A DNA stretch of 32,000 nucleotides. Source: Candidatus Baldrarchaeota archaeon. Lineage in GTDB: Archaea; Asgardarchaeota; Baldrarchaeia; Baldrarchaeales; DXJG01. The position numbers and the translations under genes were made by a program. Under the pieces are notes generated by a model that saw nothing but the letters and a program-made list of their open reading frames with translations, did not search any database and was not told the origin of the DNA. The stretch covers positions 210,001-242,000 of the forward strand of contig DXJG01000004.1 of the NCBI GenBank assembly GCA_019056805.1. Direction: 5' to 3'. This document shows, piece by piece, positions 28,624-32,000 of the stretch. The first letter of the stretch is position 1. Each line of letters starts with the position of its first letter.

Positions 28624-29551
28624 GTGTTTCTGGTGATCACTTCATCAAAATCTATATGTATAAGGTTATTGAAGAAGGAAGATGCTAATGACCTAGTTAA
28701 GTTATATGAATTAATTGGCTGGAAACTTACAAAGAAACAAGTAATAAAATGGGTAGAATATTCAAGACGTGGCAAATACACTAGAATTTTTGTAGCAGAA
28801 CTTAAGGGAAAAGTCATAGGCAAAATTACACTTGACACAGCATTTCCACCTTACGCGGAGATAGTAAATGTTATTGTACACCCTGATTACCAGAAACTAG
28901 GCATAGGTTCCAAACTAATTAAAGAATGCATTAAAATTGCAACCAACGATGGATACAACATAATTTATTTGATGTGTGACCCGGTAAATAAGAAAATTCA
29001 TCGTTTTTACGCTAAGCTAGGATTTATACCCGGAATTCTTGGAGATCCTAAAGATGCAAGAAGAGATACGTGGCTATACTATTTCTCCGAAGAATCTTTT
29101 GTCCGAAGATTCTTGGAAGATCATCCTTTCTCAGAGTTTCATGTATCTCGAAGAAAGATGAACTTTCACGGATTAACATTTTAACTCAATGAAATGGATT
29201 GACCCCATTACAGGTGACACTTTAGAGATTCTGATTAAAGGTCGGCCTGGCCAGCCTGAAAGCGGTGGAACTATGCCTAGAATCAGCGGTGTAAGATGCA
29301 AATTAAAAGAAAAGAAATTTAGCTGCTGGATACAGGAAGAAAACAACAAGGTATCTCGCAACATTCTTGGAAAATTTAAATTAAACATTATAAATGAAGG
29401 AAGAAAAGAAATCTCCGTTTACATGAAACCCCTACTTCCAAATGGAGTTGAATTAACCAACGAAGTACCTGTCTATTTCCAAGCATATAATGGTGAACAT
29501 AAAGTATTGACCTTTAAACTAAAATTATTGAAAGTTTTGACATACCATTAG
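28624..29551 (+). pseudogene. GNAT acetyltransferase with a C-terminal extension, probably one gene split by a +1 base (pseudogene or sequence error)
   Basis: GNAT motif VHPDYQKLGIGSKL...FYAKLGF in 28624..29184. Removing one A at 29183-29184 reads ...FHGLTFYSMKWIDP... into 29189..29551. Confidence 0.6.
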
Positions 29552-29719
29552 AATATTTAACATTTCCCACCATAACCGCTTCACTAATGCTGAAAGTCGA
29601 TGATAATATGGAGATAATCGTATCAGCAGGATTCAAATAATATTTCAAATTTCATTTTGATTTCAAAATATAAAATAAATTCTCCTAACACCATTAAGCT
29701 CAAAAAATACATAAACACC

Positions 29720-30016
29720 CTATTAAAATCAATTCGTGAGGGATTCAGCCTAGTTGTATCAGAAGCCTTATGGAAAGGAGTTCCCGTTGTGGGCAGCCCA
29801 GTCGGAGGAATCCCTCTACAAATAATAGATGGCTTCAACGGTTTTCTCGGAAATAACGTCAAGGAAGCAGCCGAAAAAATAATATATCTACTTAAACACC
29901 CAGAGGAAGCAAAACGCATGGGTCTAAATGGGATTAATCACGTTAAAAGGAACTTCTTAATAACTAGACATCTCAAAGATTACCTAAAACTATTCATCGA
30001 ACTCAAAAACACTTAA
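29720..30016 (+). pseudogene. C-terminal remnant of a GT4 glycosyltransferase resembling trehalose synthase TreT
   Basis: KSIREGFSLVVSEALWKGVPVVGSPVGGIPLQI...HVKRNFLITRHLKDY matches the TreT C-terminus; the N-terminal ~300 aa are absent. Confidence 0.78.
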
Positions 30017-30197: not shown

Positions 30198-30482
30198 TTA
30201 AGGAAGAATGTTTTGGCTTCTCTGTATCTGCTTTACTTTCACGATATCAACACTGAAGAGCTTCATAGGTAAACCTTTGATATCAAGTACGTCTTCGAGC
30301 TTAACTTGAGTACTAGCTTCATACTCAACCAGTACGGGGACATTATTAATAATACATGGGAAAGCATACCTTACCTTACCATTATCCTCCTTTATGGAAA
30401 AGACACATTTCTTACCATCCACATAGTTCCTTATAAGCTCCTTAAACTGTTCCAATTTTTCAACAGTCACTCTTAACACCAC
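30198..30482 (-). CDS. Small hypothetical protein (94 aa), third gene of the small operon
   Basis: GTG start after GGGGTGA, 3 bp downstream of the previous stop codon. Confidence 0.7.
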   Translation of the reverse strand: MVLRVTVEKLEQFKELIRNYVDGKKCVFSIKEDNGKVRYAFPCIINNVPVLVEYEASTQVKLEDVLDIKGLPMKLFSVDIVKVKQIQRSQNILP

Positions 30483-30485
30483 ATT

Positions 30486-30680
30486 TCACCCCCGTAAAAC
30501 CTCTACACCAACACCATTCTTCCTCAATACCATTCTTCCATCCCTATCCCTAGCAACAACATAAACGTTATCAACATTCAAAACCACTTTCAACCTCTCC
30601 GTCAAAATCTCTACAAGCGCTGCAATCTCCCTGAGAAGCGGATCATCCGTCTCAGGAGTAATAAAAAATTTAGCAGCCAA
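30486..30680 (-). CDS. 64-aa protein resembling the N-terminal domain of the divergent regulator
   Basis: TTG start after GGGTGATGAGGGGGGAG; shares PETDDP.L with the ORF starting at 31076. Confidence 0.72.
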   Translation of the reverse strand: MAAKFFITPETDDPLLREIAALVEILTERLKVVLNVDNVYVVARDRDGRMVLRKNGVGVEVLRG

Positions 30681-30696: not shown

Positions 30697-30819
30697 TCAC
30701 CCTGTTGGCCACGGATCTTGTGGATCTGCTAAAACAACGGCTGATATAATACTTACTAGTAAGAATATTAACCATAGATTTGCAAGCAACCAAATCTTCA
30801 ACCTACCAAATTTAACCAT
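30697..30819 (-). CDS. 40-aa signal-peptide-type precursor (MVKFGRLKIWLLANLWLIFLLVSIISAVVLA-DPQDPWPTG); absent from the ORF track
   Basis: Translated by hand: ATG at 30819 after GGAGGTG (30835-30829), TGA at 30699-30697 followed by a second TGA. Basic n-region, 23-residue h-region and a V-L-A cleavage motif. Confidence 0.75.
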   Translation of the reverse strand: MVKFGRLKIWLLANLWLIFLLVSIISAVVLADPQDPWPTG

Positions 30820-30870
30820 TACCTAAACACCTCCAACTTTATTTTGCTGAAATAGGTGGTCATGGGAGGG

Positions 30871-31037
30871 TATATAAATCACGGAAAATCCGGAAAAATA
30901 AAGGGACATAAATCCGAATTCGATAAATTTTACTGAAAAGTGTTTGAAAAATAGTAAAACGATGTATAGAGGGTTTATAGATCTTATGGATAAATTTTTA
31001 TAAGTTTTAAATTTTCCGTGATACGGGAAATTTTAAA
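30871..31037. promoter_or_regulatory. Divergent promoter with inverted 12-bp sites
   Basis: TTTATATA on the minus strand at 30878-30871; ATCACGGAAAAT at 30878-30889 and its exact reverse complement at 31011-31022. Confidence 0.55.
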
Positions 31038-31075: not shown

Positions 31076-32000
31076 ATGGTAACAACAAATAGATACGATG
31101 ACCTCTTCCCCGAAACCGATGACCCGAAATTAAAAACTCTATTTGAAAAAATAAGGATCTATTTAGCACGCTGCGATGGTTTAATTAAAGATTCTAATCC
31201 AGGTATATTGGTTAAAAGAGACGATATGGGAACTTTTGATCCCTATCTTACTCCCAAAAGTAAAAAAGTATATGATACTATTATTTATAGGCTCAAAATG
31301 ATTAAGAAATATAGGATAAGCGATTTTGAACAAATACAGCGTCTACTTTCTCTAGATTTAGTTAGGGAAAAAAAGCTTAAGAGAAACGAGAGAAAGTTTT
31401 TGGAGGCTTTTATTGCATATCCTGATAAAAATTATACAGAAATTGCAAGGTTATTAGGCGTTACCCCGGCGGCAGTGTTATATAACTTAAAAAAATTCAA
31501 GGAAAAGCTTGGTTTGAGATTTGTTTCTCTCTTTGACTATACAAAATTTAAATTAAGAAAGTACGTGATATTTGTAAAATTTAAACATCCCTATGATAAG
31601 CGAACTGTTTTTAAGGTTTTTGAGAATCCTTCCCTTACAAGTTTCAATTTTGATACATTTTCCTCTGAGGGGAAACGATGGGGATGGTTGGGGTTTGTTG
31701 TACCTGATCAAAGAAGGGTACTAAAGGATTTTAGGGATTCCATTGCTGAGCTTGAAGGTGTATTGTTTGATGAAGTTAAGGTTTATGAAGAAAAGGGTAT
31801 AAGTCATGGTTGGAATTTGGATCGTTTTGATAATAGACGTTGGTTTTTTCAAGAGGATATGTGGATATATGGGCTCCTGAATTTCGTCGAAAAATATGAG
31901 GATATATTACCGCAACCTGATATTTTTTGTTTTTCTTATGAAACAATACCTTTTGATAATATAGACTTTCTCATATTTCTTTTTAAAAGAGTAGACTACA
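31076..32000 (+). CDS. Large multi-domain HTH (Lrp/AsnC-like wHTH) transcriptional regulator, truncated by the window edge; absent from the ORF track
   Basis: Hand translation is open from ATG 31076 to the end (308 codons). It contains LKRNERKFLEAFIAYPDKNYTEIARLLGVTPAAVLYNLKKFKEK (HTH), followed by FDYTKFKLRKYVIFVKF as in Lrp-type linkers. Confidence 0.8.
   Translation, partial: MVTTNRYDDLFPETDDPKLKTLFEKIRIYLARCDGLIKDSNPGILVKRDDMGTFDPYLTPKSKKVYDTIIYRLKMIKKYRISDFEQIQRLLSLDLVREKKLKRNERKFLEAFIAYPDKNYTEIARLLGVTPAAVLYNLKKFKEKLGLRFVSLFDYTKFKLRKYVIFVKFKHPYDKRTVFKVFENPSLTSFNFDTFSSEGKRWGWLGFVVPDQRRVLKDFRDSIAELEGVLFDEVKVYEEKGISHGWNLDRFDNRRWFFQEDMWIYGLLNFVEKYEDILPQPDIFCFSYETIPFDNIDFLIFLFKRVDY

Follow-up and report, generated by a model that had tools for sequence, protein, structure and literature searches.

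The subject of this analysis is a 40-codon open reading frame (ORF) in a 32,000-nucleotide (nt) stretch of the genome of Candidatus Baldrarchaeota archaeon (assembly GCA_019056805.1, contig DXJG01000004.1, positions 210,001 to 242,000; hereafter "the window"). The ORF occupies positions 30697–30819 of the minus strand, stop codon included, and is the first cistron of an operon for proteins of 40, 64, and 94 amino acids (aa) that faces a divergent regulator gene. An original prediction, made from the DNA letters of the window, proposed that the ORF encodes a precursor from which signal peptidase I would release the nonapeptide DPQDPWPTG as a secreted signal. From its conservation in one Baldrarchaeia genus, we conclude that the ORF is a real coding gene. 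Our comparisons of predicted ORFs further show DPQDPWPTG to be an old conserved unit, evidently a copy of the Pro-rich mini-ORF that heads the same cassette in other Asgard lineages, and the 31-residue leader to be an apparent addition, found only in the window’s genus. This family of conserved Pro-rich mini-ORFs, which head a cassette with the regulator and a roadblock-like protein, appears to be new: no description of the family or the cassette was found in the literature on Baldrarchaeia and archaeal small proteins, in a search that was not aimed at the cassette. Regarding function, we lean tentatively, at somewhat less than even confidence, toward an N-terminally extended leader mini-ORF that acts in cis on the downstream genes and whose product is inserted in the membrane.

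The window genome (1.92 Mb in 18 contigs) belongs to the Asgard class Baldrarchaeia; the relatives compared were ‘Candidatus Baldrarchaeota archaeon Yap30.bin4.67’ (same genus) and ‘Candidatus Baldrarchaeum yapensis’ (same order). The elements that had been described at the ORF, i.e., the ribosome-binding site (RBS), the basic and hydrophobic regions, the nonapeptide, and the double TGA at the next RBS, are all present. The ATG lies at 30819–30817 and the TGA stop at 30699–30697. A Shine-Dalgarno-like GGAGGTG (30828–30834, minus strand) precedes the ATG by 8 nt, and its GGAGG is kept in all orthologs. Farther upstream, 51 nt 5' of the ATG, a TATA-like TTTATATA (30871–30878, minus strand) was read from the sequence as the putative operon promoter. 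Judged by sequence and alignment, codons 1–31 (30727–30819, minus strand) comprise a basic n-region (residues 1–8, with K3, R6, and K8) and a 23-residue hydrophobic stretch (residues 9–31, uncharged) ending in V-L-A, which places V at -3 and A at -1. Codons 32–40 (30700–30726, minus strand) encode the Pro-rich core DPQDPWPTG, the part homologous to the leaderless mini-ORFs described below. A second TGA directly follows the first (TGATGA) and is followed in turn by GGGGGGAG, the RBS of the TTG-started 64-aa gene, whose start lies 16 nt past the first stop codon. The ORF had also been called unannotated. This is accurate for the ORF track that the reader of the DNA was given, but several metagenome assemblies have the protein called, without a name.

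Ten distinct orthologs were identified, all of them in one Baldrarchaeia genus. As a precursor gene was expected to do, the orthologs conserve the reading frame (10/10), and each has GGAGG 7–9 nt upstream of its start. The codon differences are mostly synonymous (AAA/AAG, AGG/AGA, TTG/TTA/CTG, CCA/CCG/CCC/CCT). The pooled Nei-Gojobori ratio of nonsynonymous to synonymous substitution rates (dN/dS), a check proposed with the prediction, is 0.23 and indicates purifying selection; the values for the 64-aa and 94-aa genes are 0.11 and 0.07, respectively. By region, the ratio is 0.12 for residues 2–8, 0.10 for residues 9–20, 0.38 for residues 21–31, and 0.24 for the tail. The tail codons for Pro, Asp/Asn, and Gln change synonymously across the ten orthologs, and one tail position varies freely (W/Y/A/S) among close strains. 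Residues R6 to W16 are invariant in an alignment of seven sequences; two of the three orthologs read later each alter one of these residues, and R6 and K8 are invariant in all ten.

One ortholog (L051, 2453–2575) is unusual in having a GTG start, Lys for Ser at residue 23, and a TGA that replaces the GGA of its close relatives. Its tail ends in P-T-K without the final G-G; the residues past the P-x-P-T core thus look dispensable. Among the metagenome copies are contigs from a sample labelled GBSed, which we take to be Guaymas Basin sediment, and the sequencing runs that contain the DNA are labelled as subsurface, marine, sediment, and hydrothermal-vent metagenomes. There are no RNA records among the listed runs that hold locus DNA. 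The cassette was not found in two other genomes of the genus, both of which are incomplete (82–84% complete).

Could the ORF nevertheless have arisen by chance, or represent a conserved element that does not code for protein (e.g., an operator or a 5' untranslated region)? The ORF is short, and AT-rich DNA readily encodes hydrophobic peptides. However, the retention of the frame and the RBS together with the dN/dS value contradict this explanation: start, stop, frame, and RBS are kept in ten orthologs, the Pro, Leu, Lys, and Arg codons change at their third positions, and RNA structure in the region is not significant. We regard the chance or non-coding explanation as scarcely credible.

Searches with the 40-aa sequence yielded little beyond the genus. 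A profile search of 1.8 billion cluster representatives returned only the ORF’s own clade and one spurious repeat protein, the ESM Atlas showed no match above chance, and Pfam showed none. Among weak tblastn matches in relatives, one in locus L009 (a 420-aa open frame, with a similar match in genome G001) coincided with a transmembrane (TM) helix of a multi-pass membrane protein that is transporter-like by eye; we took this match to be due to chance.

The leaderless mini-ORFs were reached via homologs of the 64-aa neighbor and then via the regulator family. Two diverged Baldrarchaeum-like loci, which represent the sister family (G004/L064 and the metagenome locus L063), have the regulator, a 64-aa homolog (47–50% identical), and a 94-aa homolog. 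In both, a 9-codon ORF with its own GGTG site ends 16 nt before the 64-aa homolog and is preceded at about 35 nt by a TATA-like box. The two versions of this ORF read MYPQDPFPV and MTPQDPVPF, and their P3-Q-D-P-x-P8 aligns codon for codon with residues 33–38 of the window ORF. Between the two mini-ORFs, Pro and Asp codons show synonymous differences; the DNA upstream of them is unalignable. An in-frame 26-codon ORF before the 9-codon ORF of Baldrarchaeum yapensis was considered as a decayed leader and rejected, as the identity of its DNA to the leader of the window ORF (29%) equals that of shuffled sequence.

In all, at least six Asgard genus-level groups other than the window’s have loci with mini-ORFs of 8–14 codons in this operon position. 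Their form is M-x-P...[D/N]-P-x-P-x-stop, as in MYPQDPFPV, MRDDADPIDPTPF, and MEPHATNPFPF. In the loci read, the mini-ORF stands between the regulator and the next gene, which, where identifiable, is roadblock-like, and none of the stand-alone Asgard mini-ORFs has a hydrophobic leader. The version MRDDADPIDPTPF heads the same cassette in another Asgard family. In one genus of a further family, a 10–14-codon ORF was present in 11/11 checked loci behind a conserved leader box; seven of the 11 have [D/N]-P-x-P, and all end in Pro plus 1–3 mostly hydrophobic residues (NPFPF, NPFPY, NPYPF, DVWPF, NPAPIV). A sister genus has the mini-ORFs MNPPPLDPKPDPW, MAPRIPPKPEPW, and MDPRLPPQPDPA. Another family (L071, L073) has the 11-codon ORFs MDGPNGGIVPW and MDPGNGGGSPW, ending in PW. 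The ATG of the roadblock-like gene falls inside their Pro-Trp-stop codons (CCATGGTAG), so that stop and start overlap, an arrangement that would be compatible with termination-reinitiation. In two loci of yet another family, the mini-ORF reads M(I)LGPSP[T/M]F.

The leader box of the 11-locus genus has the form ACACACTCGC-AAGGGAAAA...GGATGTGAAAACCGAACA and stands before the mini-ORF (L076, L078–L080, L083–L085, L089, L091, L094, L095). A CTGAG/CTCAG hairpin begins within about 20 nt of the mini-ORF stop in most of those 11 loci. Because its stem is invariant, the hairpin cannot be judged by covariation.

As a control, ORFs of 8–15 codons with an RBS and at least three Pro codons were counted. 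Sense-strand counts for the intergenic regions (12.7 kb) were 6/15; the antisense strand had 0/3, and the remaining 150 kb had 2/74; the loci within one family are kin, so these counts overstate independence, and several separate lineages are involved.

Homology to the leaderless mini-ORFs starts precisely at residue 32, which is where cleavage after [V/A]-L-[A/G] is predicted. The original prediction had treated the D-P-x-D-P-W-P tail as a distinct unit, and this view gains support: the tail is conserved at the peptide level, and its boundary coincides with that site. The same observations bear on the notion that the ORF encodes a plain single-pass membrane microprotein, with the tail as an unimportant short spacer. 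Most bacterial proteins of fewer than 50 aa that have a hydrophobic stretch are such microproteins, and the nearly invariant helix with its polar Asn, within a 23-residue apolar run, would suit one. AcrZ, KdpF, CydX, and MgrB resemble the 40-aa protein in size, in the positive-inside N-terminus, in a single helix with conserved polar residues, and in being encoded by a small operon cistron. They differ in that their partners are membrane complexes with genes nearby, whereas the Asgard partners are small and soluble-looking; moreover, the homologous part of the Asgard ORF is the extramembrane tail rather than the helix. Given that the tail is under purifying selection (dN/dS 0.24) and is the sole part with homologs outside the genus, we consider this explanation quite improbable. 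A plain membrane anchor had been named beforehand as the outcome that an unconserved tail would indicate; with a conserved tail, it is disfavored.

What, then, is the leader? The n-region, the hydrophobic region, and the small residues at -3 and -1, on which the case for export had been built, are borne out in the alignment: [V/A]-L-[A/G] is found in 10/10 orthologs, and the +1 residue is D, T, or S in all ten, never Pro. Apolar residues number 14 up to Ser23; residues 23–31 (SIISAVVLA) stay apolar without Pro or Gly, resulting in a 23-residue run with no helix breaker before D32-P33. Ser23 and Ser26 resemble the start of a c-region, and one ortholog has Lys23. The genome’s own SBP_bac_5 proteins offer models for either fate: one has a 31-residue signal peptide with the c-region NFSPPATA, and the other has a 23-residue, uncleaved-looking N-terminal anchor that is equal in length to the ORF’s run. 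The N-terminus carries a charge of +3 and the tail one of -2, i.e., a positive-inside bias accompanies a hydrophobic segment of at least 19 residues. A rough hand calculation on the Hessa scale gives about -2.8 kcal/mol for residues 9–31 and suggests a stable TM helix. Within the helix, residues 6–16 are nearly invariant, Asn14 among them. The leader is also under more constraint than the tail (dN/dS of 0.10–0.12 for residues 2–20 vs. 0.24), which, as judged from the alignment, would be unusual for a throw-away signal peptide. The motifs of class III (pilin-type), Tat, and lipoprotein signals are absent from the 40-aa sequence, in which F-G precedes R6 (hence, -2 is uncharged) and there is neither an RR motif nor a Cys; these signal types are therefore excluded. 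A 40-residue chain finishes translation before its hydrophobic segment exits the ribosome, such that co-translational targeting is not possible. With a chain of this length, membrane targeting must be post-translational.

We next weighed a Sec-type pre-peptide, cut by signal peptidase I after residue 31 to free a Pro-rich extracellular signal of 9–12 residues that is possibly sensed through the facing regulator. The arguments for it are several. The leader has the n-, h-, and c-region layout, with Ser23 and Ser26 (or Lys23) as c-region-like residues; [V/A]-L-[A/G] is constant and Pro never occupies +1; and cleavage at the residue 32 boundary would free the very unit that other lineages encode directly. 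The genuine signal peptide of the genome likewise has 31 residues, the W/Y/A/S tail position varies between close strains as in pherotypes, and two SBP_bac_5 genes, located elsewhere in the genome, encode the binding component of an Opp/Dpp-type peptide importer. In addition, size and layout equal those of Phr/AimP pro-peptides. On the other side, the relatives in the sister family and in other Asgard archaea are leaderless, so Sec export is not required; conservation is higher in the leader than in the “mature” part; the c-region is embedded in a 23-residue apolar helix without a breaker; the regulator’s Pfam matches are of the winged helix-turn-helix (wHTH) type, and a TPR-like domain for peptide binding is not among them; the locus encodes no exporter and no processing protease; and the 40-residue chain is not targetable co-translationally. 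On balance, we deem the secreted signal unlikely. Because leaderless homologs occupy the same operon position, the conserved job of the peptide needs no Sec export. The original interpretation is weakened accordingly: export is not integral to the peptide family, since 8–14-codon homologs without a leader occur both in the sister family and in several further Asgard families.

Among known systems, the 40-aa form is, by analogy, most like a Phr/AimP-type pro-peptide in layout. The Phr, AimP, PapR, and NprX pre-peptides of the RRNPP systems (Bacillus and SPbeta-like phages) are also about 40 aa long; they begin with a basic segment, continue into a hydrophobic core, and have small residues at -3 and -1; their active part is short and C-terminal, and the gene adjoins one for a transcription regulator. 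The RRNPP receptors, however, belong to the TPR proteins, and the peptide gene follows the receptor gene in the same orientation, whereas here the regulator is wHTH-only in Pfam and divergent. A second difference is that the Asgard relatives of the peptide have no signal sequence. Membership in RRNPP thus failed on two counts, as there is neither a TPR receptor nor a family-wide export signal. We know of no example of an archaeal RRNPP-type pro-peptide.

SHP/Rgg and ComS/ComR of streptococci likewise have a very short peptide gene divergent from the regulator, with no canonical Sec signal, and in SHP and ComS the C-terminal 7–9 residues are the active part. SHP-type peptides are hydrophobic, are exported by PptAB, and are cut by Eep, while the Asgard core is rich in Pro and Asp; furthermore, two roadblock-like or small proteins follow in the Asgard operon. 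By analogy, the leaderless forms resemble SHP/ComS-type genes or, more likely, upstream ORFs that encode a conserved peptide, such as TnaC and the AZIN1 upstream ORF.

The operon partners provide another line of argument. The 64-aa gene (TTG start, 30486–30680, minus strand) encodes what the structural model suggests is a truncated roadblock/LC7-like fold. AlphaFold2 predicted a beta-alpha-beta-beta-beta arrangement (pLDDT of 88), and all of the 50 best Foldseek matches in the PDB are roadblock/LC7/LAMTOR proteins, including Asgard roadblocks, at E-values of only 0.1–0.6. In other Asgard families, the domain homologous to the 64-aa protein is the C-terminal part of 110–129-aa proteins. A BLASTP match (E of 8e-4, about 28% identity over 39 residues) also connects the protein with the regulator’s first ~50 residues, and the motif PETDDP-x-L is common to it and to the regulator’s N-terminus (31076–31225, plus strand). 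From this likeness, the regulator may carry a related module. The divergent wHTH regulator (31076–32000, plus strand, continuing past the window end; about 465 aa) has HTH_24 as its best Pfam match in a full-length ortholog (E of 1.4e-7), the other matches being HTH-type, too; no TPR-type peptide receptor domain was found in the Pfam search. Its family occurs in 120 of 400 Asgard genomes, with ~470–520 aa and often 2–5 copies that are sometimes in tandem; nearly all sampled members of some families have it, and other families lack it, the largest among them (0 of 135). The 94-aa gene (GTG start, 30198–30482, minus strand) encodes a small alpha/beta protein (pLDDT of 69) with only weak similarity to chains of large-subunit ribosome structures (E of 0.0075 and weaker), which we presume, from the chain labels and size, to be eL38. 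A complex prediction with the 64-, 94-, and 40-aa proteins scored 0.00; it was run with no controls and is not evidence either way.

Another possibility is that the mini-peptides act in trans inside the cell as ligands of the roadblock-like proteins or of the regulator’s roadblock-like N-terminal module, with the peptide in the window’s genus being tethered to, or delivered through, the membrane. The regulator always accompanies the peptide, and so, in most lineages, does a small roadblock-like protein; the regulator’s N-terminus is similar to the 64-aa protein; and conservation is at the peptide level. But directly encoded, free trans peptides of 8–14 residues are rare and leader peptides are common, and by the positive-inside rule the tail of the 40-aa form would face the exterior, out of reach of partners in the cytoplasm. 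Conservation adjacent to the stop with a variable upstream length also suits a nascent-chain effect better. An intracellular ligand therefore strikes us as a doubtful proposition, on a par with the secreted signal. We would give similarly little credence to the idea that a Sec-type leader, gained in this genus, converted what had been an intracellular or cis-acting mini-peptide of Asgard archaea into an exported peptide, with the readout through the regulator or the roadblock-like module.

The reading toward which we lean is the cis-acting leader mini-ORF with a membrane-inserted product. The shared, ancestral role of the Pro-rich codons would be in cis. Slow translation of Asp/Asn-Pro-x-Pro before the stop would set how many ribosomes terminate near, and re-initiate at, the roadblock-like gene. 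In the window’s genus, the finished 40-residue chain would be inserted post-translationally into the membrane with its N-terminus in and its C-terminus out; the nonapeptide would then be extracellular, remaining tethered or being cut off at [V/A]-L-[A/G]. Several features agree with this picture. The mini-ORF is the first short ORF of the predicted transcript and has its own TATA-like box and RBS. In the genus, the 64-aa gene starts 13–38 nt after the stop, and its start codon is TTG or GTG in 8/10 orthologs. The [D/N]-P-x-P-x motif sits beside the stop, the N-terminus and the length vary, and it is the amino acids rather than the nucleotides that are conserved. By analogy, this combination fits ORFs for nascent-peptide leaders. 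In yeast, ribosome pausing that depends on eIF5A occurs at motifs containing Pro and at Asp with Pro or Gly after it (PMC5499558). The upstream conserved coding region (uCC) of AZIN1 is a polyamine sensor through its C-terminal PPW motif, the pause at which depends on eIF5A and polyamines (PMC8705083). The leaderless family could represent Asgard-wide nascent-peptide sensors, similar in type to aIF5A/polyamine sensors, with roadblock-like proteins under their control.

Among regulatory upstream ORFs, the AZIN1 uCC (PPW), TnaC (W12, D16, and P24-stop), and uORF2 (the second upstream ORF) of cytomegalovirus UL4 (PP-stop) have a conserved Pro/aromatic/Asp motif at or near the stop. They, too, are short first ORFs with a variable N-terminus and peptide-level conservation, located just 5' of the regulated gene. 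The differences are that the Asgard prolines are non-consecutive and that the 31-residue hydrophobic extension has no counterpart. MifM, SecM, and VemP share with the 40-aa ORF an N-terminal signal or TM segment combined with a C-terminal motif (in their case, for arrest) directly upstream of a regulated gene. However, they are 95–170 aa long, so that the signal is outside the ribosome while the arrest motif is at the peptidyl-transferase center. A 40-residue chain keeps its hydrophobic segment in the exit tunnel at termination, which should exclude force sensing of the MifM/SecM type. Nor are the Asgard downstream genes parts of the translocon.

Besides the kinship among loci that inflates the control counts, a number of points weigh against the cis-acting leader. 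Around the tail and the RBS that follows it, no RNA switch structure was detected, the z-score of the minimum free energy being near 0 in 10/12 loci, and RNAalifold on the leader of one genus revealed no covarying structure. In two families, the mini-ORF is about 70–165 nt from the next gene; simple occlusion or re-initiation is thus not general. Non-consecutive prolines pause ribosomes more weakly than PP(X). A purely cis role also does not explain the strong purifying selection on the added leader or the small -3 and -1 residues in 10/10 orthologs, and Lys23 of one ortholog fits a signal-peptide c-region better than a TM core.

Functional peptide genes of 8–40 codons are nearly invisible to annotation, and very few are known in archaea. 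Here, a 40-aa gene under selection heads a conserved cassette in the archaeal group that is closest to eukaryotes, and the leaderless and leader-bearing natural forms constitute a built-in experiment on peptide function. If the motif pauses ribosomes, the family would be an archaeal counterpart of the eIF5A-dependent conserved-peptide upstream ORFs of eukaryotes. If the leader-bearing form is secreted, it would be the first case of peptide signaling in Archaea, and an exported nonapeptide would be the first ribosomally made, Sec-exported peptide signal described there. In both cases, the partners of 64 and 94 aa, together with the regulator family and its multiple copies, become open to testing.

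Some further features of the surroundings were recorded. Baldrarchaeum yapensis (G004) has a second, 95-aa roadblock-like paralog in another part of its genome, at L067 (919–1206, minus strand). A regulator was not seen adjacent to it, nor was a mini-ORF in a listing limited to ORFs of at least 20 aa. Synteny at the main locus is kept in relatives, in the order regulator, small ORF, 64-aa gene, and 94–96-aa gene, followed by convergent GNAT and TreT-type genes. In the window, the GNAT acetyltransferase gene (28624–29551, plus strand) is broken into ORFs of 186 and 120 aa by an apparent +1 frameshift near 29185–29188, and the second part also stops early; its counterpart in relatives (G001 locus L002; L041) is a single ORF of about 337 aa. 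The TreT-type GT1 glycosyltransferase (29657–30016, plus strand) is left as a 119-aa C-terminal fragment (Glycos_transf_1, E of 2e-14), where relatives have a 414–434-aa TreT-type gene at the same position. In the window genome, the interval from the GNAT gene to the 94-aa gene seems to have been degraded or deleted.

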